From: a virus
Lineage: Duplodnaviria > Caudoviricetes
Reading direction: 5' to 3' (one strand)
Length of the DNA: 64,000 bases
Virus record (IMG/VR): IMGVR_UViG_3300028197_000002
The notes below the pieces were generated by a model. That model made no database searches. It saw only the letters and a program-made list of their open reading frames with translations, and was not told where the DNA came from. Position 1 is the first letter of the stretch; every line of letters starts with the position of its first letter. Below, in pieces: positions 31,440 to 58,899 of the stretch. Position numbers and translations under genes: made by a program.

Positions 31440-31558
31440 GCACAAATGAAACAACTTTCTGGATAGATCCTTTTTAGAAAAGTGATTTAAGTTTTTCGAC
31501 TTGCAATTAATTATAAATAATGCCTTATTTGATATTTAATAACTTTTGACCTTTATCC
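31440..31558 (+). repeat. GCACAA-hairpin-TTGACCTTTATCC module (106-bp spacing)
   Basis: GCACAAA at 31440, 13-mer at 31546-31558. Confidence 0.85.
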
Positions 31559-31567
31559 AGATTGCTT

Positions 31568-31686
31568 GCACAAATCCGGGGATATAAAAAAACAAACAAA
31601 CCAGGCCTGGATGATTTAAGTTTTCCTCATAGCAATTAATTATAAATAAAGCATTAATTATAATTTAATAATCTTGACCTTTATCC
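31568..31686 (+). repeat. GCACAA-TTGACCTTTATCC module (106-bp spacing), tandem copy
   Basis: Shares GATTTAAGTTTTT and GCAATTAATTATAAATAA with the previous unit. Confidence 0.85.
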
Positions 31687-31702
31687 GAGCGAAAGAAAAG
31701 GT

Positions 31703-31715
31703 TTGACCTTTATCC
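31703..31715 (+). repeat. Solo TTGACCTTTATCC 13-mer
   Basis: Exact copy. Confidence 0.85.
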
Positions 31716-31824
31716 TGATTCTTCTTTTTGGAGCTAATCTTATTCTTCATGGGGATAAATTAATAAATTAATAAAGAGTAGTTTACTGAAAGAGTATCAA
31801 TCAACAACTTTCGAGGATACGAAG

Positions 31825-32604
31825 ATGCTTTTGAACTATCATTCAGATGTAGACCAGAGCAAGGTCAATCATTACGATGCGGACAATTTCTCAGATGGGA
31901 TTCCAAAGTTCCGTAGTTTTAATCGGATGTGGAATTGGTACAATCGCAAGAGTCGTTCTACTCGTAAGCGTACTAATCTTGGCAAGCGTCTGGACAGTAA
32001 AACAGAGCGTTGGATTTTAGAGGGTAGCGTACAGCATATTATTAAATATGCTCATGCTTGCGAAACTCGTTTGCCGATTGAATTTGAAGATGTCATTTTC
32101 AATGAAGAAAACATAGAGAATTATGGCATTTCATATTTAAAAAACAGAATTTATCTCGAAGATGGTGGAGAGCGTAGAGGCATTCCTGCATACGAAGAAC
32201 GATTTAGGTCTAATCCCAGATTGTTATTGAACTACGCAAAATATCTTCAGGTTCGTTTACCAGAAGATTGGGAATCTAGTTTTATTGGTGATCCAAGAGT
32301 TTGTTGTGAGTATGCTCATGGTTTCTTGAATGGTCGTTTGCCTGAGCAATTACATAATTATATGTATATGGCTCAACTGTCGGACGATAAGGACAGGCGG
32401 CTGATGTATCAGGATCGTGGCAGAACGATTCAAGTTCAGGAAGTTTTTGAATTTAATTGTTCTGGTTCAAAAACTTATTTTGATTTTATTAAATTTCAAC
32501 GAGAAAATTTAAAAGAAAAAATTTCTCATTATGTAAAAAGTTACGAAATGGACAAGAACGCATCTATTGCAGAATTTTTGCATGAATTAGAATTTGGCAA
32601 ATAA
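31825..32604 (+). CDS. Helical-repeat LPxxxHNxM-family protein
   Basis: YAKYLQVRLPEDWE...YAHGFLNGRLPEQLHNYMYM. Confidence 0.7.
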   Translation: MLLNYHSDVDQSKVNHYDADNFSDGIPKFRSFNRMWNWYNRKSRSTRKRTNLGKRLDSKTERWILEGSVQHIIKYAHACETRLPIEFEDVIFNEENIENYGISYLKNRIYLEDGGERRGIPAYEERFRSNPRLLLNYAKYLQVRLPEDWESSFIGDPRVCCEYAHGFLNGRLPEQLHNYMYMAQLSDDKDRRLMYQDRGRTIQVQEVFEFNCSGSKTYFDFIKFQRENLKEKISHYVKSYEMDKNASIAEFLHELEFGK

Positions 32605-32654
32605 AATTTTAAAAAGTAGTTTTTGGTACAATCAGTTCTCAACAACAATCAACA

Positions 32655-33929
32655 ATGGGTTTTCTAATGATTAGCCAAGATCAAATCGCAAGGTTTCGTG
32701 ACGATTTAGAAACAGTGATGTGTAAGTATTCGATTGAATTTCCTTTCTGGGGAGTTTTGTCGGAGCGAATCAAGTTTAGTCTTGTAACGGAAGGCGTTCC
32801 TACTGCTGGCATGACTCCTGATGGTCATTGCATGTTCAATGTCAATTTTATTGAAGAATTGCGAACTAAGCATAAGGATAAATTTCATAAGAAACTTTTG
32901 TTTTTGACTGCCCATGAGATAAGTCATTTTGTTTTTGAGCATGGTGATCGTCAAGGTGATCGTGACAAGATGATGTTCAATGTTGCTGCTGACTATGCGA
33001 TCAATCTTTTGCTTCATTATCAATTTGGTAAAAACAAAGATTATTTCATCGAAAGTGGAATGTTAGACGAACAGTATCAGGGCATGACTGCTGAAAGTAT
33101 TTATGAAAAACTGATGCAAGACCCTGAGAACAAGAATAGTCGCAAAAACAAAAAGGTTATGATTGACATTCTTGGTGAGGGCGAAGGTGAAGGTGAAGGC
33201 GAAGGTGAAGGGAATAGCGAGGTCATTCGTGATCGTAGAGTTCCTATGCCTAAGTCTGATGGCAAAAGTTCTAATCAAGCCAAGAGCGAAATGTCAGATC
33301 ATATTGTTCGTGCTTTGAGTGAAGCATTTGCCGTTGCCAAGAGTCAAGGCAAGTTGCCTGCTGATTTTGAACGTGCTATTAGCAAGATTCTAAAGCCTAA
33401 AGTAGATTGGCTTAGAGCGTTGCGTAGCAAGATGCGTTTTGGAATGAGTAGGTTAGAAAAGCGTGATGCTGATTGGCTGAATCCTAATCGACGTTTTCTA
33501 GGCAGAGATTATATTCTTCCTAGTCAGTGTGGTGCTAACGCTCCTAAGATTGCCTATGCTGTTGATACTTCTGGTAGCATGAGTCAACGTGACCTAGAGC
33601 AAGCTATGAGTGAACTAGAAGAAATCCGCAAGCGTTTTAATGCAAAGGTTTACGTTTTAGATTGTGATGCTGATGTTCATGGTTCTGGGTGGATTCAACC
33701 GCAACAACCACTACCTGTTTTGAATGGTGGTGGCGGGACAGACTTTGTTCCAGTGTTTGAACACCTTAGCGAAATGCGTATGAAACCAGACTACTGTATC
33801 TTCTTCACAGACGGGTACGGAAGGTTTGGTGACAATGCACCCAACTATCCTGTTCTTTGGGTAATGACTAGCGATGTAAAGCCTCCGTTTGGCGATACGA
33901 TTCAAGTCAATGTTCCTTATGAAGAATAA
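32655..33929 (+). CDS. Metallopeptidase-VWA protein (DUF2201-like)
   Basis: HEISH zincin motif, NVAADYAIN, (GE)n linker, MIDAS DTSGSMS, GGGGTDF, FTDGYG. Confidence 0.9.
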   Translation: MGFLMISQDQIARFRDDLETVMCKYSIEFPFWGVLSERIKFSLVTEGVPTAGMTPDGHCMFNVNFIEELRTKHKDKFHKKLLFLTAHEISHFVFEHGDRQGDRDKMMFNVAADYAINLLLHYQFGKNKDYFIESGMLDEQYQGMTAESIYEKLMQDPENKNSRKNKKVMIDILGEGEGEGEGEGEGNSEVIRDRRVPMPKSDGKSSNQAKSEMSDHIVRALSEAFAVAKSQGKLPADFERAISKILKPKVDWLRALRSKMRFGMSRLEKRDADWLNPNRRFLGRDYILPSQCGANAPKIAYAVDTSGSMSQRDLEQAMSELEEIRKRFNAKVYVLDCDADVHGSGWIQPQQPLPVLNGGGGTDFVPVFEHLSEMRMKPDYCIFFTDGYGRFGDNAPNYPVLWVMTSDVKPPFGDTIQVNVPYEE

Positions 33930-34260
33930 TAGGATAACAAAACCTATGTTCCTTAATGACGGCCAGATAGTAGATGATAATTTCTTACCCATAGATTCCC
34001 CTGAAAGAGTCTACCTTTGGGCAAAGTATGTTGTGAAAGGCAAAATATCTTTAGAGAAGGAACAAATTTTATATGATTCTCCAAGACTGATTTATTTTTA
34101 TAGCAAACTTTTAATTGAATTAGGAATCTCTATTCCAGATCATCTTCATAATTTTATGCTGATGGAATCAATGAACAGAGTTGATGATGACCAAAAAGAA
34201 TATGACCAAAAAGAATTTATTTTAAATTTTTTAAAATTGATTAAAAAAATTCCAGAGTAG
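33889..34260 (+). CDS. LPxxxHNxM-family protein
   Basis: WAKYVVKGKI...SIPDHLHNFMLM. Confidence 0.6.
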   Translation: MAIRFKSMFLMKNNRITKPMFLNDGQIVDDNFLPIDSPERVYLWAKYVVKGKISLEKEQILYDSPRLIYFYSKLLIELGISIPDHLHNFMLMESMNRVDDDQKEYDQKEFILNFLKLIKKIPE

Positions 34261-34316
34261 TTTCTGGTAAAGATAGTTCTCAACAACACTCTCAACAACA
34301 AACAAGGAAACGTCTT

Positions 34317-35423
34317 ATGTCAGACAAGATCATCAACACCTCAAACGTAATTACTGGTTCTCTTAGTGAGAAGATTCGTCGTTGTCGTGCAGTCAAGACA
34401 AACAAGGGCGATGGGCTTCCCATGATGATTTATGGAAGTCCGGGGGTTGGTAAATCGGAACAAGTTGCCGAAGCACTTGGCGAAGATGAACTAATGATCG
34501 ACCTTCGATTGAATAGTCTTGATAGCATTGACCTTCGTGGATTGCCTATCATCTGTAAAGACAAAGATCGTCGTCCTACGGAAGTCAAGTGGGTACGTCC
34601 AGAGTTTATTCCTGATGATGGGGGCGTAGTGGTTGACGGAAAGAAATACACTGGTGGTATTATCTTTTTGGATGAGATCAATACTGCTGCACCTAGCGTT
34701 CAGAATCCAGCGTTGCAGTTGGTACTAGACCGCAAGGTAGGTTCTCATCATCTTGGCAAGAACTGGTACATTTGTGCTGCTGGTAACAAGCAAGATGACA
34801 AGGCTCATGTTTATCCTTTAAGTGCTGCTTTACGTCAACGGTTTGCGGTCTACCATTACGAACCAGACCACAATACTTGGACTAATTGGGCTGTAAAGAA
34901 TGACGTTCATCCTCATGTCATTGGGTTTATTTCATTCAAACCAGATTTGTTGATTCAGCCAAGTGTGGACGAAGAATCTAACAATCCTTCTCCTAGAAGT
35001 TGGTATTATGTTTCGCAGAGACTTCATGCAGACCAGAACGAACTAGAGGACATTCGCAGCATCGTTGGTTCTGCCGCAACAGAGTTCATGGCATACCAAG
35101 CGGTTTGCGAGAATCTTCCTAGCATCAAAGATATGTTGGAAGGCAAGGTTGAATGGAAAGAGGATTCGTCAAACGTCACGATCAGTTATGCTGTAAGTAA
35201 CGCTCTTGCCACTCACATGCTTCGATCTGACAATGTGAAAGATCATATCGAAAATGCCTTTGAAGCGTTGTTGAATATGTCTGGTGAACCTAGCATCTTG
35301 TTCATGCGACGAGTTATGCACTCTGATAATGACAAGTTGAAGCAAGCATTGTTTACAAGCGACAATGGTAAAAAGTGGTTCAAGAAACATGGTGATCGTA
35401 TGACTAAAGCTATTCAAATGTAA
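34317..35423 (+). CDS. MoxR-family AAA+ ATPase
   Basis: Walker A GSPGVGKS, Walker B FLDEIN, AAGN, ALRQRF, PSPRSW. Confidence 0.9.
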   Translation: MSDKIINTSNVITGSLSEKIRRCRAVKTNKGDGLPMMIYGSPGVGKSEQVAEALGEDELMIDLRLNSLDSIDLRGLPIICKDKDRRPTEVKWVRPEFIPDDGGVVVDGKKYTGGIIFLDEINTAAPSVQNPALQLVLDRKVGSHHLGKNWYICAAGNKQDDKAHVYPLSAALRQRFAVYHYEPDHNTWTNWAVKNDVHPHVIGFISFKPDLLIQPSVDEESNNPSPRSWYYVSQRLHADQNELEDIRSIVGSAATEFMAYQAVCENLPSIKDMLEGKVEWKEDSSNVTISYAVSNALATHMLRSDNVKDHIENAFEALLNMSGEPSILFMRRVMHSDNDKLKQALFTSDNGKKWFKKHGDRMTKAIQM

Positions 35424-35444
35424 AAAGAATTTGTTGTTGAGAAG

Positions 35445-35478
35445 TCCCTCCTGCCCCGAAAGGGGTGGGGGGATTTTT
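35445..35478 (+). terminator. Intrinsic terminator
   Basis: TCCCTCCTGCCCC-GAAA-GGGGTGGGGGGA followed by T5. Confidence 0.75.
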
Positions 35479-35554
35479 AATATATATTTTAAAGTAATTT
35501 TTAAATACAATAACAATATTGTTAAAAAAATAGAAAGTAGTTTGCGGTAAAAGT

Positions 35555-35815
35555 ATGGGACAAGAAAAAGACTTTGAAGACCTGAAAAAAGAAGCTATGG
35601 AAAACGAAGTAAATCAAAAGATTTTTGATTTGGTAGAAAAGCCTAAAGACTTTATGTTCGTTAAATCATCGAACGTCTACTATGACCGCTATCGTGTGAA
35701 CGTATACAGTGCGTATCAAGATGGTGGAACATTAACTGGCTATACAAGCCAACGAATCTCTCATTCATATTTTTGTAAATACGATGGAGAAGATTTAACA
35801 ATTATTTCTGCTTAG
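35555..35815 (+). CDS. Hypothetical protein (probably leaderless mRNA)
   Basis: ATG 6 nt after promoter motif 35538-35549. Confidence 0.65.
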   Translation: MGQEKDFEDLKKEAMENEVNQKIFDLVEKPKDFMFVKSSNVYYDRYRVNVYSAYQDGGTLTGYTSQRISHSYFCKYDGEDLTIISA

Positions 35816-35876
35816 TTTATAGTAATATGGTGAAGCGGTTTAAATCCAACCAACTAACCAACTAATTTAAATTAAA

Positions 35877-36092
35877 ATGAAAATTAAAAAAGGCGACCGA
35901 TTAAAATTAACTGGTCCAATTAAAAATTCTGATTCTACTTGGATGCCTATTGAGAAAGACATGCCAGTGGGATTAGAAGGGTCTGTAACAGATGTTTCTA
36001 ATGGGCATGGTCATCTTTACATTGCAATGCAATGGGACAATGGTAGAACATTGTCGTTAATTGATTCTGATAAATGTTATGAATTAGTTTAA
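35877..36092 (+). CDS. DUF4314-like small protein
   Basis: KGDRLKL...G.EGSV..V...MQWDNGRTLSLI. Confidence 0.6.
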   Translation: MKIKKGDRLKLTGPIKNSDSTWMPIEKDMPVGLEGSVTDVSNGHGHLYIAMQWDNGRTLSLIDSDKCYELV

Positions 36093-36097
36093 AATTA

Positions 36098-36171
36098 GCC
36101 CCTATAGCTTAATTGGTTAAAGCAACGGTCTTTTAAACCGTCGAGTGTAAGTTCGAGTCTTACTGGGGGTA
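36098..36171 (+). tRNA. tRNA-Lys(UUU)
   Basis: Cloverleaf; ACGGT-CTTTTAA-ACCGT arm; GTTCGAG T-loop; no encoded CCA. Confidence 0.92.
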
Positions 36172-36185
36172 CATGTAAATTTAAA

Positions 36186-36213
36186 TTGACAGTTGAGTTA
36201 TAATTATTATAAT
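36186..36213 (+). promoter_or_regulatory. Consensus sigma70 promoter
   Basis: TTGACA-N16-TATAAT. Confidence 0.65.
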
Positions 36214-36219
36214 TAAAGC

Positions 36220-36323
36220 TCTCCCGAACAGGAAGCGTCCTTTCCCCTACACATTGATTGTGACCTTTCTGTTTAATAAACCAGCCCTTTGGATAATGCT
36301 AGTCTAAAGGGCTGGTATTTTTT
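36220..36323 (+). ncRNA. Candidate ~100-nt small RNA
   Basis: Own promoter and terminator, no ORF; 9-bp stem 36227-36235/36265-36273. Confidence 0.45.
36280..36323 (+). terminator. Intrinsic terminator
   Basis: ACCAGCCCTTT...AAAGGGCTGGT followed by ATTTTTT. Confidence 0.8.
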
Positions 36324-36325
36324 AA

Positions 36326-36396
36326 TACGGGGTGGTGTAATGGTAGCACAAGAGTTTTTGGTACTCTTTGTCGGGGTTCGAGTCCCTGCTCCGTAG
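36326..36396 (+). tRNA. tRNA-Gln(UUG)
   Basis: U1-A72 acceptor TACGGGG/CTCCGTA; AGAGT-TTTTGGT-ACTCT arm. Confidence 0.9.
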
Positions 36397-36455
36397 CTTA
36401 AAAAAATATTTTATTTGAAAAAAAACAAGACTTAGTTTATTATAAATATATGAAA

Positions 36456-36810
36456 GGGGTCGTTCTGGTATCGACTGGATAAAAAGATACATGCTCGCAA
36501 GTAGTGGTTAATCGACAGGCCACTTAAAAAGTCGATTAAAACGCTTTAACTGGCGAAACTCAGTTAGCACTCGCCGCTTAGTATAGTGGTGACAGTTTTA
36601 GGAAGCGATGAAGGGAGCGTCCAAAAAACTGCTGTAAAATCCTTCGGCTGTTAAGTTCGGTCAACGGGGACTTAACCTGAGATACGGTTGATCGGAAAGA
36701 CGAATGTTGTTTGTTCTTTAGTCCTTTCTTAAAAATTATGAACAAAATAAACTTGTAGAAAGTGTGTGGAAAGTTATCTCAGGACAGGGGTTCGACTCCC
36801 CTCGACTCCA
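36456..36810 (+). ncRNA. ssrA: tmRNA; tag peptide (A)GETQLALAA* at 36552-36581
   Basis: Acceptor GGGGTCG/CGACTCC-A with G3:U70, 5' GGTATCGAC, 3' GGGGTTCGACTCCCC T-arm, TAACT before resume codon, LAA degron. Confidence 0.95.
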
Positions 36811-37031
36811 CTTTTTTTTAATTTAATATCTATATAATTTTATGGATATTAACATGATAATAAATATAGCTCTTGGTGTAGTTTTAGGAAGATTTCTAGG
36901 CTGGTTTTTATTAATAATTTGGAATGGCTTTTTGGGCTGTATCCGAGATACTAAAAGAAAATTTAAAAAATAATCAAAAGCAGTTTGCGGTAATTTTAGT
37001 CAACCCGATCTAAACCTTACAGGGAATTTCT

Positions 37032-37727: not shown

Positions 37728-37765
37728 TTTTTTGTATAAATATCTCCAACATTAAGGAAACCAAA

Positions 37766-37993: not shown

Positions 37994-38031
37994 AAGATGA
38001 GGGTCAAGTTTAATTTAAATTAAATTGATGT

Positions 38032-38116: not shown

Positions 38117-38129
38117 CTTTTACAGACAT

Positions 38130-38203
<74 letters not shown>

Positions 38204-38237: not shown

Positions 38238-38417
38238 ATGAAATCTGATGACTATTGGAAAAGCATAAAAGAGGATTGGAAAAAACATACGATTGAATTA
38301 AAAGATAACAAGTGGATTTTAAAATTTAAAAATGATAAATTAAAAGATCATACTTTCACCAGCAAAACAAAATTAGAAGAATATTTAGATTGGTTGGAAA
38401 ACGCTACTTATGTCTGA
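38238..38417 (+). CDS. Hypothetical protein (start moved out of the tRNA)
   Basis: ATG 38238 in frame with track ORF 38199. Confidence 0.55.
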   Translation: MKSDDYWKSIKEDWKKHTIELKDNKWILKFKNDKLKDHTFTSKTKLEEYLDWLENATYV

Positions 38418-38898
38418 CAAAGGTCTGCTGGATGAAATACGTTTGTCGGAAGCGGGTTGTTCTCAACCCAAACTCAGCTACATATTTAAAACTTTAAAAG
38501 CAAATAATATAACCGAACTCGAAGTTAATTTTGATGGTCATAGTGATGACGGACACATGCGGTTTACTAATGCAGTAGGTGATCCAAGCAAAGTAAAGGA
38601 AATTACACTTTACAACGAAGTTAGTCCAAATACATTCTTGGATGAACCAACACCTTTTGCATCCCAAAGTTCAGGAGCAACATATCCGGATGCATCAGCA
38701 ACCTTATGTGATATTATTTGGGAATCTGTGTATTCGATTTTCGATTACAAGGATATTAGCTGGTGCGGAGGTCGTGGGAATAAAGGTTATTTAAAATTTA
38801 ATTCTTTTAAAAATAAAGTTGAAATAAAATATTTAAAATATGTAGAAAGCTATGATGAGATCACTTTCAACCAAATTTCAGGAAACATTATAAATTAA
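38410..38898 (+). CDS. DUF6878-like protein
   Basis: LEVNFDGHSDDG; W..GRGNKG. Confidence 0.55.
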   Translation: MSDKGLLDEIRLSEAGCSQPKLSYIFKTLKANNITELEVNFDGHSDDGHMRFTNAVGDPSKVKEITLYNEVSPNTFLDEPTPFASQSSGATYPDASATLCDIIWESVYSIFDYKDISWCGGRGNKGYLKFNSFKNKVEIKYLKYVESYDEITFNQISGNIIN

Positions 38899-38919: not shown

Positions 38920-39429
38920 TTGCTGTATTGTTATCAGCAACAACATTTGGGAGAAAGTATGGCTAATCCATATCATCATGCGGTATCGAGTGCAAAGAAG
39001 TGGGGCGGAGAGCCAGAGGATTATCAATCAATCCACGATTGGTTTGACTGTTCTAAGGAAATGTGGGCTGATTTTCGCCATCGTGCTTTGAGGCATCATT
39101 CTCAGGGCATTTTTGAAGCAGAGCGTATATTTGGTCATACTATTAGAATTAGCGGGAAACGTAAACTTCGTTGGTTTGAGAAGGTAGTTTCTTTTATTAC
39201 CGGCAAAGAAATAAAAACTGGTCGGAAAGTGCCTGTACGCTGGATTGGCGAACAGCATGTGAAAGAGGATTGCGGATTTATCCCTTCGATCCAGGATTGG
39301 TTTAGGCACATAAAGCCTCAAAGATGGATGGGACAACCACCTGTTCGATTAGAAAAGGCTTTAGAAAAGGTAAATTCTACCGAAGATTGGCAGAATCATG
39401 TGGGTGAGAAAATTGATGTAGCAATATGA
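38920..39429 (+). CDS. DUF6915-like protein (likely start ATG 38959)
   Basis: MANPYHHAVSSAKKWGG..EDY..IHDWFD...HRALRHHSQGIF...EQHV.EDCG. Confidence 0.75.
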   Translation: MLYCYQQQHLGESMANPYHHAVSSAKKWGGEPEDYQSIHDWFDCSKEMWADFRHRALRHHSQGIFEAERIFGHTIRISGKRKLRWFEKVVSFITGKEIKTGRKVPVRWIGEQHVKEDCGFIPSIQDWFRHIKPQRWMGQPPVRLEKALEKVNSTEDWQNHVGEKIDVAI

Positions 39430-40089: not shown

Positions 40090-40455
40090 ATGAAATTAAA
40101 TGCAAGGCAATTAGCTGAAAATTTAGGAATTTCATACGTGGTTTCATCAGGCTTGATTAAACTGCTTTTGGAAATGAAACAAATTGAATTAGCTGAAAAG
40201 GTTTTCCATAGTAGTGGAAAAGGAAAGCCAACAAAAATTTATAATTTTCCAGAAGAAGTATCCATTGCTATCAAAGAAGTTGTTCAGGCAGAGCCTGTGG
40301 TTGACGCCCTAGACTTCACTATGGTTGAGGAACCAGTTGCAGAACCAGTTGCAGAAGAAGTTGTAGACAACCGAAAAATGGTTACAGCAAATGCCGGTGA
40401 AAGTTGGTATTACGAAGACGAAGATGATGACGACGACTACGTTGATGTTGATTAA
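40090..40455 (+). CDS. Winged-HTH-like DNA-binding protein with acidic tail; paralog of 47335
   Basis: LNARQLAENLGISYVVSSGLI...SGKGKPTKIY. Confidence 0.6.
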   Translation: MKLNARQLAENLGISYVVSSGLIKLLLEMKQIELAEKVFHSSGKGKPTKIYNFPEEVSIAIKEVVQAEPVVDALDFTMVEEPVAEPVAEEVVDNRKMVTANAGESWYYEDEDDDDDYVDVD

Positions 40456-45385: not shown

Positions 45386-45400
45386 TTCGATTCGATTCGC

Positions 45401-45458
45401 ACAAAAACTTAAGATTCTAGTCTTCTTTGATAGAAGTGCTTGAATCTTAAGTTTTTGT
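45401..45458 (+). terminator. 17-bp perfect inverted repeat (terminator-like)
   Basis: ACAAAAACTTAAGATTC 45401-45417 / GAATCTTAAGTTTTTGT 45442-45458; begins at a GCACAAA box (45399). Confidence 0.7.
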
Positions 45459-45483
45459 CTTAACGATTAAATAATATTTAATT

Positions 45484-45583
45484 GCACAAATCTTAATAAT
45501 TAAATTAAATTAAATAGGTTCTGTTTAAGATTTAAGTTTTCCTTATGCCGATAAAATAATATTTAATATCTTGACCTTTATCC
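45484..45583 (+). repeat. GCACAA-TTGACCTTTATCC module (87-bp spacing)
   Basis: 13-mer at 45571-45583. Confidence 0.85.
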
Positions 45584-45750
45584 ATAAATAAAACTTTCCG
45601 TATAGTTTCTTGTAATTTACAGGAGGATTCAAAATGACAATATCAATAGACTCAGTTTTGTTTTTTGCATGGATTGTCGCTTCTGCTCTGTTCGCTTTAT
45701 TATAAAAAATTGCGATTTAGTTTATAGTAAAAATAACCAACCAACCTACA

Positions 45751-46129: not shown

Positions 46130-46660
46130 ATGCCTACTATTACCAAAAACCAACTTGTAGATCGTCTTATGAATCTTCGTGGTGCTAAGTTTACTACGAT
46201 TGTTGCTGAGACTGATCCACGGATGCTAAAAACTGGAAACCCTTTTGTTGGGGCTACCAAAATCAGTCGTGTGAACGGCGTGGTCAACTGGATTTACCAG
46301 AACTCGGTAAACAATCAGCGGGTTCGTGAAAATCAACCGTTAGATCAACAGGGAGAGATTGAGCATTTCTCTCCAGAACCTCGCAAGTGGGGACAAAGGC
46401 TCAAGCATGAGACTGGTCATGTGGCTCCTCTTGTTGAGCATAAAGGCAAGCATTACCTTGAACTCAAGGTAGAGCGTTCACTTGGACATGAGTATCGTTT
46501 GAATGGCGAAACTTTGGACTCGCAGGATGTTTCCGAGTTTCTTCCTAAGCGTAAAGAAGGAGCAAGGCAGAAGGTAGACAATCCAGTTGTACTGCGAGAT
46601 TACAGTATCGAAAACATCCGTCAGATTACGATAGACGGAGTGATTTACGAAGTGGAATGA
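46130..46660 (+). CDS. Hypothetical protein, close paralog of 55986-56531
   Basis: High amino-acid identity end to end. Confidence 0.8.
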   Translation: MPTITKNQLVDRLMNLRGAKFTTIVAETDPRMLKTGNPFVGATKISRVNGVVNWIYQNSVNNQRVRENQPLDQQGEIEHFSPEPRKWGQRLKHETGHVAPLVEHKGKHYLELKVERSLGHEYRLNGETLDSQDVSEFLPKRKEGARQKVDNPVVLRDYSIENIRQITIDGVIYEVE

Positions 46661-46672
46661 AGTTGGTTGGTG

Positions 46673-46708
46673 AAGCCAGACTAGGATCATACCCTAGTCT
46701 GGTTTTTT
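46673..46708 (+). terminator. Intrinsic terminator, CTAGGATCATACCCTAG family
   Basis: CCAGACTAGG-ATCATAC-CCTAGTCTGG-T6; same sequence at 52678. Confidence 0.8.
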
Positions 46709-46720
46709 CATTTGTTTATC

Positions 46721-46733
46721 TTGACCTTTATCC
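46721..46733 (+). repeat. TTGACCTTTATCC 13-mer
   Basis: Exact copy after terminator. Confidence 0.85.
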
Positions 46734-46791
46734 AACTTGTTCTATTAGAAATTAAATAATAAAAAAATCAGAAGTAGTTTACGGTATAAAA

Positions 46792-47334: not shown

Positions 47335-47532
47335 ATGAAACTGACCAGTAAAGAAGTAGCTGAAAAGTTTAATATTAAATATACAGTTGCAGCAGGTCTT
47401 ATGAGTTTGTTACAAAAACAAGGTCAAGCAAAAGTTGTAGAAAAAAGATTTCATCAAAGTGGCAAAGGACAACCGATTAGAGTCTATGAAGTGAATGATG
47501 AATGTTTAGTTGATTTTAACAAGGCATCCTAA
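47335..47532 (+). CDS. Winged-HTH-like protein, paralog of 40090
   Basis: LTSKEVAEKFNIKY...SGKGQPIRVY. Confidence 0.6.
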   Translation: MKLTSKEVAEKFNIKYTVAAGLMSLLQKQGQAKVVEKRFHQSGKGQPIRVYEVNDECLVDFNKAS

Positions 47533-50691: not shown

Positions 50692-50976
50692 TTTATTATT
50701 TATTTTAAATAAATTAAAAGTAGTTTCTGGTAAAGCTAGAGTTCGATTCCTAGCTAACTAAGGAGAAACGACATGGCTGAAGAAATAAAAAATGTTTTCG
50801 CAGAGTTAATAGTTCGTGTAAAATAAAAATTAAGCACTATTTTATAATTGTACCAACACGAACGAGTAATAATAAACGTGGTTAGGCCAGTAACGTGTTG
50901 ATAATAAAAATAAAGTCTGGCGGGAATGGTATCCTCCCTCACTAGAACGGGCCTTTCCAAACAACAAGGAGAATAA

Positions 50977-51180: not shown

Positions 51181-51292
51181 GCACAAAAATAACAAATAGA
51201 AAACATTCGAGTATAAATTTGTTGTTTCTTAAGTTTCTTTTATAATAATTAAAATTTAACCTTTAAATTTTAATTATTCTTGACCTTTATCC
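51181..51292 (+). repeat. GCACAA-TTGACCTTTATCC module (99-bp spacing)
   Basis: 13-mer at 51280-51292, 14 nt before tRNA-Tyr. Confidence 0.85.
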
Positions 51293-51305: not shown

Positions 51306-51387
51306 GGGGAGTTTCCCGAGCGGTCAAAGGGGTCAGACTGTAAATCTGATGGCAGCGCCTTCACAGGTTCGAATCCTGTACTCCCCA
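51306..51387 (+). tRNA. tRNA-Tyr(GUA)
   Basis: TCAGA-CTGTAAA-TCTGA arm, variable arm, GGGGAGT/ACTCCCC acceptor. Confidence 0.92.
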
Positions 51388-52198: not shown

Positions 52199-52265
52199 TA
52201 AAAATTAGAAGTAGTTTACGGTAAAGGTATCAACCAACCAACCAACTAACTGAAAGGGAAGTCAA

Positions 52266-52643
52266 ATGGAATTCTACCGTCACTTTACCGGAACAACTTA
52301 CACAAGCGGTGTCCAACAACTTGCAGAAAAGAAAAGTGCCTATTGGATTATTGATGCAATATCAAGTCATGTAGTAGCAAACTCAGAGTTTAAGAAACGA
52401 TGCTCTACAGATCCAATGTTTGAAGATATGCAAATTTGGATTCTTAAAAAGAAGCAAGATGGAGCAAAACTTATCGCTGTCGCTGATACAGTGCGAGAAG
52501 AACTAAACGCTCCAACTTGTGAACAAGAAATTGAATTCACGGACTTTGAGTTTGGAGAAGATGAAGAAATTAAGTTTTATTGCGCAAGAAACTACGACGG
52601 AGACAAACCTTTTTACACAATCATGAGGCCAAGAGAATATTAA
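52266..52643 (+). CDS. DUF6876-like protein
   Basis: YTSGVQQLAEK.SAYWIIDAISSH...QEIEFTDF. Confidence 0.7.
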   Translation: MEFYRHFTGTTYTSGVQQLAEKKSAYWIIDAISSHVVANSEFKKRCSTDPMFEDMQIWILKKKQDGAKLIAVADTVREELNAPTCEQEIEFTDFEFGEDEEIKFYCARNYDGDKPFYTIMRPREY

Positions 52644-52677
52644 TTAAAAAGACCTCCTATTAACGTAGGAGTTGGTG

Positions 52678-52712
52678 AAGCCAGACTAGGATCATACCCT
52701 AGTCTGGTTTTT
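52678..52712 (+). terminator. Intrinsic terminator, same sequence as 46673
   Basis: About 40 nt identical including upstream GTTGGTGAAG. Confidence 0.8.
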
Positions 52713-52730
52713 CTTTATGCAAATGAAAAC

Positions 52731-52743
52731 TTGACCTTTATCC
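52731..52743 (+). repeat. TTGACCTTTATCC 13-mer
   Basis: Exact copy. Confidence 0.85.
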
Positions 52744-52823
52744 GCCGTGCATTCATTAAATAAAATTTAACAAGTTAGTTTATGGTAAAAGTAGATCAAC
52801 TAACAACGAGTAAGGAGACTCAA

Positions 52824-52988: not shown

Positions 52989-53035
52989 TTATTAGTTTAT
53001 GGTAAAGGTATCAACCAATCAAAGGAACACGCTGA

Positions 53036-53464: not shown

Positions 53465-53530
53465 TTAAATAATAAAAAAGCCAGAGTAGTTCATGGTAAA
53501 GATATCAACCAACTTTCAACGGAGTGAAAA

Positions 53531-53695
53531 ATGGAATTTGAAGTTATGATTAGAAACAGCATTGTTAAATGTAAAGGCGATGCTTCCACAATGTTTGCTA
53601 TCTTGAAAAGTCTCAAAGAGAATAACAAAGAACCTAAGTTTAGAATTTGGGACGAAGAATTAAACGACCTTACTTGCTGGCAGGATGTACCATGA
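53531..53695 (+). CDS. Small hypothetical protein (54 aa)
   Basis: GGAG SD after promoter at 53487; ATGA overlap with next ORF. Confidence 0.6.
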   Translation: MEFEVMIRNSIVKCKGDASTMFAILKSLKENNKEPKFRIWDEELNDLTCWQDVP

Positions 53696-53832
53696 ATTTC
53701 ACTAGACTACTAAATCTTGTTGCCTATGGGCAAGTTCCTGTTAAGCCAAGGGACATCTCTCCCTTCCGATGGAACGCTATGGTTAAATGTGTCCGAACCT
53801 ATATGAAGGAGAATAAAATTGAAAGCGCCTGA
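53692..53832 (+). CDS. Small hypothetical protein (start revised from 53647)
   Basis: MNFTRLLNL... Confidence 0.5.
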   Translation: MNFTRLLNLVAYGQVPVKPRDISPFRWNAMVKCVRTYMKENKIESA

Positions 53833-54022
53833 AAACCTAAGTCAGAAAGAATGTGATATGGAACTGGCAAACCTAAGAGAATGTTTGCAAGATGATGTTC
53901 TCACTTATTTTGGTGGATACGAAAATAGTATCCCTTTTACATACACTAACGAACAACATGAAACTTTTATCGACGATATTTGTGGAATAATTGTTAGCAA
54001 AATTAACGAGCAAATTAAATAA
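53819..54022 (+). CDS. Hypothetical protein
   Basis: AAGGAG SD, TTG start. Confidence 0.55.
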   Translation: MKAPENLSQKECDMELANLRECLQDDVLTYFGGYENSIPFTYTNEQHETFIDDICGIIVSKINEQIK

Positions 54023-54084
54023 AATTTAATGAGTTAGTTTATGGTAAAGGTATCAACCAACTCCGGCAACTAAGAGAGAAACAA

Positions 54085-54273
54085 ATGCCAAACCAGCAAT
54101 TTAGTTTAGAAGTTATTCAAGAAGCTATGGAAGATTACACTGGCTTTTGTATCAAGTGTGGTGCAGAGCGAGATAGTTGTGAACCTGATGCCCGCGAATA
54201 TGAGTGCTATGAGTGTGAAGAACACACAGTCTATGGTGCTGAAGAACTTTTGATAATGGGCTTGGTAAGTTAA
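54085..54273 (+). CDS. Zn-ribbon protein
   Basis: GFCIKCGAE...CEPDAREYECYEC...VYGAEE. Confidence 0.7.
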   Translation: MPNQQFSLEVIQEAMEDYTGFCIKCGAERDSCEPDAREYECYECEEHTVYGAEELLIMGLVS

Positions 54274-54279
54274 AACCTT

Positions 54280-54391
54280 GCACAAATACAAGCCTACCTT
54301 GCAATATCTCTCGCAAGGTAGGCTTTATTATCTTTTCTTTATATTTATTATATTTTGACCGCTAAATTTAGATCTGTCTTGACCTTTATCC
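54280..54391 (+). repeat. GCACAA-hairpin-TTGACCTTTATCC module (99-bp spacing)
   Basis: Hairpin AAGCCTACCTTGC/GCAAGGTAGGCTT at 54290-54326; 13-mer at 54379. Confidence 0.85.
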
Positions 54392-54451
54392 AAACACTCT
54401 GATTAAATAATAAAAAAATAGAAAGTAGTTTACGGTAAAGGTATCAACCAA

Positions 54452-54495
54452 GCGGTGAGGCAGAGAAGTTCACTCAACCACACTCCCCTCACCGC
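54452..54495 (+). promoter_or_regulatory. Structured 5' leader, copy 1
   Basis: GCGGTGAGG/CCTCACCGC stem; 41/44 identical to 57356-57399. Confidence 0.65.
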
Positions 54496-54515
54496 ACTCA
54501 ACCAAAGGAAACGAA

Positions 54516-54734
54516 ATGGACAACCAGATCACTCTTAACCTTGAATCTATCAACCTCCACATCAACCCACTTGGTTTCTACTTGGAATACAATGAACCAG
54601 ATGGTGAAGGTGGCGGAGATGAATACGAATTGTTCAGTAATGAACATAGTCTTGGAATTACCGGAGTGTACGAAACACTTGAAGAAGCATTAGTTGATTG
54701 TCGAGAAGTTGTAAACGGAAACAATCCATTATAA
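54516..54734 (+). CDS. Acidic hypothetical protein
   Basis: AAAGGA SD. Confidence 0.65.
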   Translation: MDNQITLNLESINLHINPLGFYLEYNEPDGEGGGDEYELFSNEHSLGITGVYETLEEALVDCREVVNGNNPL

Positions 54735-54798
54735 TTTAATTATAGAAAGTAGTTTATGGTAAGAGTATTAACCAACTAACCCCTAAAGGAAACTAAAG

Positions 54799-55032
54799 AT
54801 GCCAATTACAGTTCATGAAAATGGTGGAATGAGTATCACCGGCGAAGATGGAATGTTTGCTTTCAGACTGAATATGGTTTATCGCGGACTTAAATTGCAA
54901 AGAGATACAGGGATGCGATTGACTGGAAAGGTATCGACCCTGAAAGCAGCACGGGATATGGGCTTTGTTGGCCGAACGTGCAAAACTCTTATCAAAGATA
55001 TTGAATCGAAATACCCACAATTAAAAGGTTGA
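54799..55032 (+). CDS. Hypothetical protein
   Basis: Own promoter at 54750; AAAGGA SD. Confidence 0.65.
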   Translation: MPITVHENGGMSITGEDGMFAFRLNMVYRGLKLQRDTGMRLTGKVSTLKAARDMGFVGRTCKTLIKDIESKYPQLKG

Positions 55033-55047
55033 TGGTTGAAAAAGAAT

Positions 55048-55090
55048 GAGACTAGGGGATCAAAAAAATTCCCTAGTCTCAAACTTTTTT
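55048..55090 (+). terminator. Intrinsic terminator
   Basis: GAGACTAGGG/CCCTAGTCTC followed by T-run. Confidence 0.75.
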
Positions 55091-55199
55091 CCGGACAAAC
55101 TAAAAAACGTCCCGTTACTATCTCTTAGCAACAGATAATTAATTAATATTAGTTTGTTGTAAGAGTATCCAATCAATTCAATAAAAGGAAAAACAACGG

Positions 55200-55775
55200 A
55201 TGCGTGTTCACTTAAACACTTTTTGCAGCGACAGACAAACAGAAGAATCACCACTCACTCACTGGGAAGTCAGCAACACTCGATTGATCGAGCTTGCAGA
55301 AGCAGAAGTAGAAGCAGGTAGAACAAAAGCAGGATACCGTGATGGTGTAGTGCTTGTGAGTGTCGATCCGGCTGGCTTCAAAACCGGCGTTGTGGAATTA
55401 GAAAATGGCGATAAATTAATTGGCGAATTTAAGAGTAGAAGGGAAGGTGAAGATCCTAGATCCAGTATCAACGTAGATCGTAAGGAATGGTTTTCACAAG
55501 TAGATAGAAAGCAGTCTGCCAAAATAGTAGAAGTAGTATTGTATAGTCACAGCGTACTAGCAGAAGGTAACGAAAACGAAACCGATGCTGACTACGAAAT
55601 CGTTAGTGTGAATGGTCATCCTACAAATGAACCAGCACCAATCGCTCCAGAAACACTAATGCATAATCACTTTGGTAGTGATGGTGGAACAGATACCGGA
55701 ATGACCGCTGAACAATTTGAAGCAGCCATGAAAGAATCTTTCAACTACTGGAAAAATAAAGCAATGCTTTGTTAA
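55200..55775 (+). CDS. Conserved phage hypothetical protein
   Basis: AGYRDGVVLV...VVLYSH...YEIVSVN. Confidence 0.7.
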   Translation: MRVHLNTFCSDRQTEESPLTHWEVSNTRLIELAEAEVEAGRTKAGYRDGVVLVSVDPAGFKTGVVELENGDKLIGEFKSRREGEDPRSSINVDRKEWFSQVDRKQSAKIVEVVLYSHSVLAEGNENETDADYEIVSVNGHPTNEPAPIAPETLMHNHFGSDGGTDTGMTAEQFEAAMKESFNYWKNKAMLC

Positions 55776-55782
55776 AAACCTT

Positions 55783-55894
55783 GCACAAATTTTAACCCTG
55801 AGTTGTATCCCTCCCGCAACTCAGGGTTTATTATCTTCTCTATATAATTATTATATTTTAACCCTTAAATTTTAACTCGTCTTGACCTTTATCC
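55783..55894 (+). repeat. GCACAA-hairpin-TTGACCTTTATCC module (99-bp spacing)
   Basis: Hairpin AACCCTGAGTTG/CAACTCAGGGTT at 55794-55830; 13-mer at 55882. Confidence 0.85.
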
Positions 55895-55985
55895 AAGCGC
55901 GAGCGTGATGCAATGAAAAGAAAGCAGAATTAAATAATAAAAAATCCAGAGTAGTTCATGGTAAAGGTATCAACCAATCAAACTT

Positions 55986-56531
55986 TTGAAAGAATCAACA
56001 ATGCCTACTCTCACTAAAACCCAACTCGTCGATCACTTGATGAACCTTAAAGGTGCAAAGTTCACCACCATCGTGGCAGAAACAGATCCTCGAATGAGGA
56101 AAACCGGAAACCCTTACGTTGGGGCAACTAAAGTTAGTCGCGTAAATGGTGTGGTGAACTGGATTTACCAAAACAGCGTCAACAATCAACGATGCCGTGA
56201 AAACCAACCACTAGACAATGCGGGCGAAGTAGAACACTTCTCACCGGAACCTAGACGATGGGGAACACGCCTAAAGCATGAAACCGGCCATGTTGCTCCA
56301 TTGGTAGAGCATAAGGGCAAACACTACCTAGAACTAAAGGTAGAGCGTAGCCTAGGATACGAATATAAATTAAACGGGGAAACATTAGACCCGCAAAACG
56401 TTGCTGAGTTCCTGCCTAAACGTAAGGAAGGGGCAAGACAGAAAGTAGAAAACCCTGTAGTGTTGCGTGATTACTCTATCGAGAATATCAAGCAAATCAC
56501 AATCGACAGCGTGATCTACGAAATAGAATAA
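55986..56531 (+). CDS. Hypothetical protein, close paralog of 46130-46660 (likely start ATG 56001)
   Basis: MPTLTKTQLVDHLMNLKGAKF versus MPTITKNQLVDRLMNLRGAKF. Confidence 0.8.
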   Translation: MKESTMPTLTKTQLVDHLMNLKGAKFTTIVAETDPRMRKTGNPYVGATKVSRVNGVVNWIYQNSVNNQRCRENQPLDNAGEVEHFSPEPRRWGTRLKHETGHVAPLVEHKGKHYLELKVERSLGYEYKLNGETLDPQNVAEFLPKRKEGARQKVENPVVLRDYSIENIKQITIDSVIYEIE

Positions 56532-56543
56532 GGTTGATGGTTG

Positions 56544-56582
56544 AAAGCTAGGCTAGGATCATACCCTAGCCTAGCTTTTTTT
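56544..56582 (+). terminator. Intrinsic terminator, CTAGGATCATACCCTAG family
   Basis: AAAGCTAGGCTAGG/CCTAGCCTAGCTTT. Confidence 0.8.
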
Positions 56583-56608
56583 AATTTATTTTTATTTTTT
56601 TATATCAC

Positions 56609-56621
56609 TTGACCTTTATCC
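56609..56621 (+). repeat. TTGACCTTTATCC 13-mer
   Basis: Exact copy. Confidence 0.85.
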
Positions 56622-56714
56622 AAGCGCGATGTGATAGAATTAAATAATAAAAAATAGCAGTTAGTTTATGGTAAAGGTATCAACCAACCTTCCTTCCTTT
56701 TTTAAGAGTCAACC

Positions 56715-57086
56715 ATGAAAGCTAAATACTTCATCCAACTTGCTGGTCAATGCGATTCTTTTCACGCTGAGTTCGATTCCCTTCCTGATCGTGGCGAAAG
56801 TTTGTGTGATCTTCAAGTTAGCCAAGCTGCTAGAGGCTATCGTTGCGTGGAATTAGTGTTGAGCATCTACGGATGGACGGTGCGTTATAATAGCGGATTG
56901 CAAGATCGAGCTATCCTTTACCGTTCAAAAGATAAAGATCCGGCCAAAGCATTGGAATATGCTCTGGAGTACGTTAGTTTTGATCCAGCTCACCGTGAGG
57001 CCAATGTTAGAATCAGTAGCGTGGAACGGTGCGAGAAGCAAGGGTATGATTGCCAATGTCTTAGGGGTTATCAGCAAGCTATATAA
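56715..57086 (+). CDS. Hypothetical protein
   Basis: Own promoter at 56662. Confidence 0.65.
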   Translation: MKAKYFIQLAGQCDSFHAEFDSLPDRGESLCDLQVSQAARGYRCVELVLSIYGWTVRYNSGLQDRAILYRSKDKDPAKALEYALEYVSFDPAHREANVRISSVERCEKQGYDCQCLRGYQQAI

Positions 57087-57092
57087 ATCCTT

Positions 57093-57204
57093 GCACAAAA
57101 TTTAATGCCTATCTTGAATAAAATTTCAGGATAGGCATTTATAAGTTTTGCTTTATATAATTAAAATTTAACCTCTAACTTTTAATTAGTCTTGACCTTT
57201 ATCC
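57093..57204 (+). repeat. GCACAA-hairpin-TTGACCTTTATCC module (99-bp spacing)
   Basis: Hairpin AATGCCTATCTTGA/TCAGGATAGGCATT at 57104-57140; 13-mer at 57192. Confidence 0.85.
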
Positions 57205-57355
57205 TAGCGCACAATCTTTACAATCAATCAAGCTAGGCCGCAATCGTTCCTTATATATACGCAATCGGTTTTCCAGCAATAAAATTAAACATAGAAATTA
57301 AATTAAATTCAATCATAAAATTTTGAGAGTAGTTTACGGTAAAGGTATCAACCAA

Positions 57356-57399
57356 ACGGTGATGCAGAGAAGTTCACTCAACCACACTCCCCTCACCGT
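57356..57399 (+). promoter_or_regulatory. Structured 5' leader, copy 2
   Basis: ACGGTGA/TCACCGT stem; terminal pair covaries with copy 1. Confidence 0.65.
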
Positions 57400-57414
57400 T
57401 AACCGTTTCCTTTT

Positions 57415-58326
57415 TTGAAAGTTGTCACTATGACTATCGCATCTTCAATCGTCACTAAAGTTTCCGATACCTTCAACTTCAACGTGTCCAAGTTACCACT
57501 ATCCGGCCCTGATAATCTTCGCACACCGTTCTACGGTTTGTTCCGTTCGGATACCGGTGCGGTTGTAAATGATCGTAGCGTTTCATCTCGCTACGTTCCG
57601 CATCAAACCGATGATGTGATTGCATTGGTGGAAGCTAGTGGTCATGCGTTCGAAGACGGCATTGCAGACGTTCGATGCTATTTCAACAGCGGGCATTTTG
57701 TGAGCGTTAAGCCTACCCGTGAATATCGTGAAAGTATTTTCGGGGATAAAGATAACATCTTTCCACGTATCACGATTAGTGCGGGATACGATGGTAAATC
57801 GTTTCGGGCTAACATGGGATTCTATCGTGACCTATGCGACAATATGTCGATGATGTCACTGGTTAATGGAACTAGCGTTTGCATCCGGCACACTAGCGGA
57901 TTGCGGGCTAAGATGAACGAATTGATCGAGACGTTCAGCGTACTTAAAAATTCATGGTCGAATCTTACTGATGTTATCCATCGGATGGAAAATCAGCAGG
58001 TCGCATTGAATCAGTTTGTGCGTGATGTATACGGTGAACCTAGTGAGGGTAAACGTGGCCGTACCATGGCAGAAAATCGCATCGAAGCTATCTTCAGACG
58101 TGTTATGCGGGAACGTCTCGCTAGTGGTCGACCGGAAGTAGATACCACAAACTGGATGGTATCCGCATGGGAAGCATACAATTCTGTGCAAGGGTATGTT
58201 CAGCATGATGCTATCCGCCATAGTCGAAACGGTTCAATCACCGGCATGGGGCGAATCGTTGCCGCTCAAACTGATCCGGCGGTTAGACGTGCTGAATCGG
58301 TAGCAATGGCAGCTATCGCGGCATAG
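57415..58326 (+). CDS. DUF932/DUF945-like protein (likely start ATG 57430)
   Basis: FRSDTG..V....VSSRYVPHQ, YRDLCDNM, IRHTSGL, SAWEAYNSV. Confidence 0.7.
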   Translation: MKVVTMTIASSIVTKVSDTFNFNVSKLPLSGPDNLRTPFYGLFRSDTGAVVNDRSVSSRYVPHQTDDVIALVEASGHAFEDGIADVRCYFNSGHFVSVKPTREYRESIFGDKDNIFPRITISAGYDGKSFRANMGFYRDLCDNMSMMSLVNGTSVCIRHTSGLRAKMNELIETFSVLKNSWSNLTDVIHRMENQQVALNQFVRDVYGEPSEGKRGRTMAENRIEAIFRRVMRERLASGRPEVDTTNWMVSAWEAYNSVQGYVQHDAIRHSRNGSITGMGRIVAAQTDPAVRRAESVAMAAIAA

Positions 58327-58329
58327 GTC

Positions 58330-58429
58330 GCACAATTAAAAGCTAGGTCGGATATAAAATTCCGGCCTAGTTTTTTTATTTATATTTTTATTTTTATTTT
58401 TTATTTGTGCATAGACTTGACCTTTATCC
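58330..58429 (+). repeat. GCACAA-hairpin-TTGACCTTTATCC module (87-bp spacing)
   Basis: Hairpin CTAGGTCGGA/TCCGGCCTAG; 13-mer at 58417. Confidence 0.85.
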
Positions 58430-58511
58430 TAGCAATACGTGGCTAGATTAAAATTTTGTGTTTAGTTTATGGTAAAGATACCAACCGATTCCTTTTCTGA
58501 AAGACTTTGCC

Positions 58512-58829
58512 ATGTGCTACTACGATGTTCAGCGTGAACGTGAAGATGCTTTGTTCAATGAAAGCCTATCAATGGGACAACTTGAATCTGCCGCTATGAG
58601 TGAGTTTGCCCACAATGCTGGTCAGGATCAGCCTGAGACGGCGTGGCTCCTCACTGACCGTGATGTGTGGGTAGCTAATCCTAACTACACTGGAAAGCCT
58701 GTGCCGCATCCTGAGAGCGATGATGAAGGTTATGAGGACGATGGACAACCCTCTACGTATGAGGAATACCAAGACCTTCACGGTGGTGATGATTGGGATC
58801 ACGGTCAATGCGATGATGTGCCATTCTAA
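58512..58829 (+). CDS. Acidic hypothetical protein
   Basis: AWLLTDRDVWVANPNYTGKPVPHPE. Confidence 0.7.
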   Translation: MCYYDVQREREDALFNESLSMGQLESAAMSEFAHNAGQDQPETAWLLTDRDVWVANPNYTGKPVPHPESDDEGYEDDGQPSTYEEYQDLHGGDDWDHGQCDDVPF

Positions 58830-58899
58830 TTTGTGCAAGCAATTTTCAGGAAATAAACTTCCTGATTTTTGCTTATATGACCGCTAGGATAAAGGTCAA
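58830..58899 (-). repeat. Inverted copies of both module boxes
   Basis: TTTGTGC at 58830-58836 and GGATAAAGGTCAA at 58887-58899 with a hairpin between. Confidence 0.8.

Follow-up and report, generated by a model that had tools for sequence, protein, structure and literature searches.

Promoter-early stem-loop (PeSL) cassettes are known in T4-type phages (Arbiol 2010, PMC2839356; Comeau 2014, PMC4122927), for which a mechanism of shuffling has been described (PMC4122927). Their plan, a terminator stem-loop, an AT-rich stretch, a promoter, a leader, and a start codon between the small ORFan genes of a hyperplastic region, is repeated in many copies that diverge between lineages, and recombination between copies gives insertions, deletions (indels), and exchanges between close relatives. 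Here, we report a module that resembles PeSL cassettes in each of these points, found in 64,000 nucleotides (nt) of DNA (the window; IMG/VR record IMGVR_UViG_3300028197_000002) that represent the early or accessory part of the genome of an uncultured marine jumbo phage. In this module, a GCACAA box and a 13-mer ending in TTTATCC frame a hairpin in the spacers between small genes. The module is a real, conserved cassette for regulation and shuffling, PeSL-like with two extra boxes. As an overall explanation, which we hold with slightly less than even confidence, the spacers would close one transcription unit, open the next, and supply the homology for shuffling of single genes.

The parallels found are a stem-loop terminator directly upstream of a promoter (intergenic, in the window modules), a concentration where the genome is variable and its genes are small and of unknown function (31.5 to 59 kb), and element-bounded indels between close relatives by homologous exchange (two strains, L133 and L134; such handles denote relatives from metagenomes). 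The differences are that the PeSL promoter is sigma70-like and early (−35, N17, −10) and the window promoter is not sigma70-like, that two extra boxes frame the window stem-loop (TTGCACAAAT at the gene end and the box ending in TTTATCC before the promoter), and that the module belongs to an uncultured marine jumbo phage outside the described T4-like genera.

Spacer modules at unit boundaries

The exact 13-mer starts at 12 plus-strand positions (31546, 31674, 31703, 45571, 46721, 51280, 52731, 54379, 55882, 56609, 57192, and 58417) and is present once on the minus strand (58887 to 58899), precisely where an earlier reading made from the letters of the window (the sequence-only reading) had placed it. 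With up to two mismatches allowed, 15 matches were found against 2.1 expected, a count reached in 0 of 100 shuffles; copies with two mismatches lie on the minus strand at 58796 and 59094. All copies are intergenic and the module sits at unit boundaries, as had been claimed; the 13-mer is absent from positions 1 to 31 kb, where terminators are also rare. Eight of the 12 plus-strand copies have GCACAA upstream, at start-to-start distances of 99 bp (GCACAA at 51181, 54280, 55783, and 57093), 87 bp (45484 and 58330), or 106 bp (31440 and 31568), which reproduces the earlier counts; 0.13 copies with GCACAA 85 to 110 nt upstream are expected at random positions. The bare hexamer is not over-represented in the window (15 versus 12.4 expected), and a longer form of the box, TTGCACAAA, was counted seven times on the plus strand.

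The typical spacer consists of TTGCACAAAT, located 0 to 13 nt past a stop codon, a hairpin with a T-run, AT-rich filler, and the 13-mer; in a second type, a GC-rich terminator is followed by the 13-mer, with no GCACAA-led part. The 13-mer is present only at units closed in one of these two ways, and it stands behind seven of the eight strong terminators between 44 and 59.5 kb. Each 13-mer has a hairpin 18 to 55 nt ahead of it and the next abundant promoter (core TAGTTYAYGGTA) 32 to 138 nt behind it; both this widely varying distance and the differences in sequence among fillers and hairpins bear out the sequence-only reading. Predicted folds vary from copy to copy, so that no conserved RNA fold of the spacers was found, and they never pair one end of a module with the other (GCACAA and the 13-mer are not complementary). 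Rfam searches returned tRNAs and transfer-messenger RNA (tmRNA) only.

The left edge of the array is formed by two tandem spacers and an additional 13-mer. A GCACAA-led spacer without a 13-mer (31324 to 31439), whose box overlaps the stop codon of an open reading frame (ORF) at 31028 to 31333, is followed by a full module with a spacing of 106 bp (31440 to 31558; 13-mer at 31546 to 31558), by its tandem duplicate with the same spacing (31568 to 31686; 13-mer at 31674 to 31686), and by the extra 13-mer (31703 to 31715), which begins 29 nt after the previous copy; this pair of 13-mers is conserved in relative L124 (107/137). At 45399 to 45483, a truncated module (GCACAA and hairpin, no 13-mer) is fused to the GCACAA box of a module with a spacing of 87 bp (45484 to 45583), both boxes of which are kept in the orthologous copies of L120 and L124. 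Modules with a spacing of 99 bp follow at 51181 to 51292, 54280 to 54391 (with a 15-bp stem), 55783 to 55894, and 57093 to 57204 (orthologues at 20658 to 20769 in L120 and 20373 to 20483 in L124), and the second module with a spacing of 87 bp is at 58330 to 58429. Spacers of the terminator type occupy 46665 to 46733 (43 nt identical to the terminator at 52671), 52671 to 52743, and 56543 to 56621, the last behind a paralogous cassette of 176 amino acids (aa). All of these features are on the plus strand. At the right edge, an inverted GCACAA box, a hairpin (58846 to 58865), and the inverted 13-mer (58887 to 58899) make up a minus-strand module (58831 to 58899), and a second, degenerate inverted 13-mer with two mismatches lies at 59094 to 59106.

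The distances between the two boxes had been called quantised in the sequence-only reading. The four 99-bp spacers are 65 to 74% alike and the two 106-bp spacers 66%, against a background of about 55%, and the two 87-bp spacers (45484 and 58330) have mutually unrelated fillers. Since most of the spacers that share a length in the window are paralogous, the word overstates a pattern that is largely paralogy, although the counts themselves stand. Across six lineages, all 43 distances from GCACAA to the TAT of the second box (a few of the GCACAA matches being coding coincidences) fall within 87 to 114 bp, with broad modes at 93 to 98 and 103 to 110 bp.

Promoter classes and the second box

The abundant promoter of the array combines an A-tract with TAGTTYAYGGTA (22 exact copies and many more with two mismatches), always on the plus strand and 30 to 50 nt ahead of start codons; its plan is an A-tract, TAGTT, and TAYGGT. 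An example is at 46775 to 46786, and others are at 52776, 54426, 55952, 56662, 57330, 58463, and 58923. In relatives, the TAT of the equivalent motif lies 8 to 9 nt before the mature 5′ end of a tRNA or tmRNA in five of six cases (in L124, the tmRNA begins 9 nt past the TAT of the −10 hexamer of the promoter), and the motif is therefore read as the main promoter of the phage, with TAT opening a −10 hexamer. It has no −35 element, and sigma70-like sites are not enriched (47 versus 45.9 in shuffles). In two relatives, a canonical TTGAAA-N17-TATAAT precedes one tRNA (8900 to 8940 in L127 and 8130 to 8170 in L130), which indicates that the hosts use ordinary sigma70 signals and that the phage has at least three promoter classes. 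As a candidate −35 element of sigma70, the TTGACC of the 13-mer was rejected: there is no −10 element at 16 to 19 nt, and TTGAC is absent from the other lineages.

Flanks were fetched from six lineages in metagenomes with the SNF2 helicase as an anchor, and the layout is the same in all six: gene end, TTGCACAAAT box, 80 to 105 nt of hairpin and AT-rich filler, second box, and the lineage's own promoter. Relatives with about 90% and about 75% nucleotide identity carry the 13-mer intact or with a single substitution (G3A; the form beginning TTAACC predominates in one lineage), and orthologous modules retain both boxes with the hairpin part replaced. In four lineages whose SNF2 proteins are 63 to 65% identical, GCACAA is followed after 78 to 102 nt by a second box of their own (CCTGATATTTATCT, CCTGATGTTTAT, ACAACCTAACATTTATCCTA, or GGTTATCATTTATCCTA) and by promoters that differ too. 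In these four lineages, TGCACAAAT is retained at the unit end, also directly behind tRNA genes. The first box is common to lineages whose promoters have diverged completely. The second box has the core TTTATCC, with TT-TAT-C(C) invariant and a lineage-specific 8 to 12 nt on its 5′ side; the 13-mer is the window lineage's version of a second box common to six lineages. The architecture is absent from the GC-rich relatives L132 and L136.

Anchored on TAT, conservation of the second box extends 8 to 14 nt upstream and just 2 to 4 nt downstream, and in every lineage the main promoter likewise consists of a specific block, TAT, and class-specific bases. Forward and inverted boxes number 12:1 in the window and 12:1 in L135, and they are forward only in L127, L130, L133, and L137. 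The box keeps no fixed distance to any downstream element, and tandem copies stand at the entrance of the array. At tRNA-Tyr (51306 to 51387), which begins 13 nt past the end of the 13-mer at 51280, this 13-mer is the only upstream promoter candidate for the tRNA and the following ORF; there, TAT and the mature 5′ end are separated by 15 nt, as they are at the window tmRNA behind the abundant promoter (8 to 9 nt in five other RNA genes).

The 13-mer may accordingly be a promoter of its own class, a reading favored by its co-orientation with genes, the lack of a fixed downstream partner, the postterminator and tandem sites, the conservation profile, and the tRNA-Tyr geometry. We tentatively infer, somewhat short of an even chance, that it is a second phage-specific promoter class restarting transcription behind terminators. 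The TAT of the 13-mer would open a −10-like hexamer (TATCCN), and a rapidly evolving specificity factor of the phage would recognize the 5′ part of the box; the second box would thereby mirror the plan of the abundant promoter (specific 5′ block, TAT, class-specific bases), and the GCACAA box would belong to the 3′ end of the transcription unit. The sequence-only reading had held that the 13-mer is "not a promoter element"; the 13-mer does lie outside the abundant downstream promoter, but the claim overreaches for a box built like the phage's own promoters.

Several observations weigh against a promoter class. The phage is represented in three metatranscriptomes by short contigs, which show neither transcript starts nor strand. 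The last hexamer position is T in just 5 of the 13 window copies. Three copies are oriented backward, into the 3′ end of the gene before them (58899 in the window; 6625 and 11917 in L135). An ordinary promoter nearly always follows the box, so the box could act on that promoter, and the modal offset between them, 35 to 54 nt by lineage, would be appropriate for an activator or operator placed upstream. The narrow 87- to 114-bp range between GCACAA and the second box has no explanation under a promoter reading.

The same offsets (35 to 36 nt in L135, 37 to 43 in L137, 40 to 47 in L127, and 45 to 54 in the window) would fit a rival reading of the 13-mer, and perhaps also GCACAA, as a site for a phage DNA-binding protein acting as activator, operator, or insulator of the neighboring promoter. 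Such a protein, for which small winged-helix proteins are candidates, could possibly bridge both boxes over about 100 bp. The modes of the 43 distances lie near 95 and 107 bp, about one helical turn apart, and one inverted box stands directly upstream of a forward promoter. A winged-helix family with two to three paralogues is present in all six module-bearing lineages and was not found in the two module-free GC-rich relatives. In the window, it includes a small candidate regulator at 40090 to 40455 (plus strand; paralogues in every module-bearing lineage) and a second protein at 47335 to 47532 (plus strand), the model of which (predicted local distance difference test, 89) has MarR, Lrs14, ArsR, and TFE wings as its top fold matches. 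However, about half of the offsets are outliers (20 to 200 nt), the box is strongly asymmetric and nearly always co-oriented with genes, at tRNA-Tyr there is no promoter on which the box could act, no link was found between the winged-helix proteins and either box, and equal spacings within the genome are accounted for by paralogy. We regard a binding site as the leading alternative, though an unlikely one. Most of the winged-helix proteins (window 40090 to 40455 and 47335 to 47532, L135 6303 to 6539, and others) have C termini of -SEAA, -AEAA, or -NAA that are reminiscent of ssrA-type degradation tails, and the phage carries its own tmRNA.

A combined form of these ideas, which we consider rather improbable, is joint recognition: a phage factor, for example, a winged-helix protein, would hold the TTGCACAAAT box and the box ending in TTTATCC on one face of the helix at about 95 or about 107 bp and build a "punctuation" complex that ends one unit, loads polymerase for the next, and incidentally aligns spacers for exchange.

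The orientation of the box, which follows transcription, would also suit an RNA-level signal in read-through transcripts, either a site of endonuclease processing or a boxA-like site of antitermination by which polymerases that leaked past one terminator would pass the next. The window 13-mer matches rrn boxA at 8 of 11 positions, the GCACAA box stands behind tRNA 3′ ends as well as stop codons, as a 3′-end processing signal might, and some contigs of RNA libraries span 13-mers, though these could be DNA carry-over. Like nut/boxA sites, the 13-mer is a short asymmetric box near a hairpin in a phage early region; its likeness to boxA is at chance level and is gone in the sister lineages, where only TTTAT(CC) is common. 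BoxA acts in the transcript, downstream of a promoter and upstream of terminators; the window box is placed the opposite way, after terminators that look efficient and before promoters, which would leave it out of most transcripts, and no conserved hairpin of the boxB kind accompanies it. An RNA signal is thus improbable.

The sequence-only reading had also offered a minus-strand small-RNA family, which is supported by nothing more than a weak likeness of the reverse strand to a late promoter. On this view, that strand of the box would be a T4-type late promoter for short leftward RNAs ending at the hairpin and TTTGTGC (the complement of GCACAA). Reverse-complemented, the box gives GATAAATA in L127 and ATAAACA in L130, the hairpin at 54290 to 54325 is scored as a terminator on the minus strand (tail, GTATTTGTGC), and the phage has T4-like traits such as rIIA; yet the reverse strand in the window lineage, GATAAAGG, is a poor match, most of the conserved block would fall downstream of the promoter, no part of the RNA body would be conserved, and the array has no minus-strand genes. 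We judge this very improbable. Nothing was found in favor of the iteron or packaging role proposed in the same place. Further candidates for the 13-mer were rejected: a DnaA box shares only TTATCC with it, the consensus of integration host factor does not fit, and no trans-acting complementary RNA was found, as there is no other match with up to two mismatches on either strand.

A promoter class for the second box also invites comparison with the tandem early and MotA-dependent middle promoters of T4, in which two promoter-like classes of signal likewise lie upstream of the same genes and recognition would be by a phage-adapted polymerase. The MotA box lies at a fixed 11 to 13 bp from the −10 element. 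The window box differs in having no fixed partner, with no TAnnnT at a constant distance past the 13-mer. MotA or AsiA homologues did not turn up incidentally in the few window ORFs scanned, and no dedicated scan was made.

Exchange between repeated spacers

Strains L133 and L134 are 99.8% alike and differ by 1.1 kb. In L134, two repeats of about 170 nt, each with GCACAA, hairpin, box, and promoter, surround 1.1 kb of extra genes, and a single hybrid repeat is present in L133. The crossover falls between alignment columns 54 and 92, within the spacer hairpin; it is no closer than 5 nt to GCACAA and no closer than 50 nt to the second box. In contigs of other samples, position 52670 is joined to 46666 via a 42-nt common terminator and 57363 to 54460 via a 35-nt common leader; both of these joints, which go back in the order of the window, fit circles (excised mini-circles being a trait of PeSL cassettes), tandem duplications, or other gene orders equally. 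Many apparent contig joints at 46749 to 46756 were rejected as rearrangements, being partial alignments of the repeated promoter. Between lineages, cassette order is permuted, one small ORF is found at another locus, and L133 carries a duplication of DUF932; one breakpoint between the window and L120 lies inside an ORF.

Repeated spacers, terminators, and leaders serve as the homology for gain, loss, and permutation of single-gene cassettes, and the exchange is homologous and of the PeSL type, not attC-like site-specific recombination. The sequence-only reading had proposed a cassette recombination site conceptually like either attC or the T4 elements; the likeness to PeSL stands (permuted cassettes and a 1.1-kb indel by exchange between modules), and the attC-like part falls. 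It had also suggested comparing relatives for breakpoints at the 13-mer: the indel ends within the spacer module, with the crossover at neither box.

For the attC-like form, both boxes would be sites for a site-specific recombinase in an integron-like cassette system. Like attC, the module has conserved ends around a center variable in length and sequence, able to form a hairpin and adjoining single-gene cassettes; tandem empty modules exist (31324 to 31715 and 45399 to 45583), and cassette content varies among relatives. In attC, however, the ends are imperfect inverted repeats (R″/L″ with L′/R′), and the window ends are not complementary. The crossover of the cleanest indel is in the hairpin, away from both boxes, the breakpoint against L120 within an ORF likewise disagrees, and the window cassettes carry their own promoters. 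No integrase, recombinase, or HUH domain was found among the Pfam matches of about 150 kb of related DNA, and no tyrosine integrase among those of the scanned window ORFs or fetched loci. We therefore consider an integron-like system extremely unlikely. Repetitive extragenic palindromes and bacterial interspersed mosaic elements (REP/BIME) or repeats derived from IS200/IS605 have a conserved palindromic hairpin that a HUH transposase recognizes; the window hairpins vary in sequence, and no HUH domain appears in the Pfam lists.

Two pairs of repeats were observed in coding or leader DNA. Paralogous 176-aa cassettes (46130 to 46660 and 56001 to 56531) have DNA about 74% identical, with a similar terminator and then a 13-mer behind each, and 35 nt are identical in the 5′ leaders of two unrelated genes (54460 to 54494 and 57364 to 57398).

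Setting of the array and meaning for the clade

The phage was detected in marine metagenomes only. It was not found in the GenBank phage collection (top SNF2 match, 32%, Rhodothermus phage RM378) or by pattern scans of IMG/VR, which gave only single chance matches for a 14-mer and none for the 24-nt promoter. Genes in the window are almost all on the plus strand and include two ATP-dependent ligases, UvdE, rIIA, and the SNF2 helicase, with seven tRNAs and one tmRNA. From 31.5 to 59 kb, about 60 small ORFs, the majority without a Pfam match, are split into short transcription units, with a phage-type promoter of its own for nearly each gene. Terminator-like hairpins are enriched (23 versus 10), and the first 20 kb of the window is nearly free of terminators. 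Many families typical of conjugative "leading regions" or antirestriction islands were observed in the array (PcfJ-like, DUF6878, DUF6915, DUF6876, and DUF932); genes of this type lie at 23651 to 24973, 38410 to 38898, 38959 to 39429, 52266 to 52643, and 57430 to 58326.

The tmRNA (36456 to 36811; tag, GETQLALAA) is conserved in L124 (4537 to 4892). An 85-nt noncoding element at 50873 to 50957, preceded by a promoter variant carrying TATAAT, is 92 to 96% identical in relatives whose flanks are 75 to 90% identical; it is a candidate structured RNA with no Rfam match, and its conservation is too high to reveal covariation. Hydrophobic ORFs of 23 to 24 aa stand directly behind a 13-mer-type box in the window (45634 to 45705) and in L135 (about 17245 to 17320), and an ordinary promoter comes next after each. 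At the right end of the array, a gene-poor 0.5 kb (58935 to 59495) contains a direct repeat (TGTAACATTT core and A-run) near 58960 and 59262. Behind the helicase operon, in an orthologous intergenic stretch of L127 (12660 to 12840) and L130 (11975 to 12150), TAAGTCCTT is found at least three times, in both orientations, and may form an array that is iteron-like or bound by protein.

Early genes that are small and change quickly form large arrays in jumbo phages. To our knowledge, the expression and reshuffling of such arrays have been described for only a few cultured T4-type phages. The clade described here shows the logic of PeSL-like cassettes built from non-sigma70 signals, with one box conserved far beyond the promoters and a second that depends on lineage. 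With the boxes as handles, the boundaries of units, the classes of promoters, and their specificity factors could be sought in uncultured phages, and the sites where new genes slot in could be predicted. If true, joint recognition of the two boxes would be a conserved, undescribed means of insulating single-gene units across a clade of marine jumbo phages.

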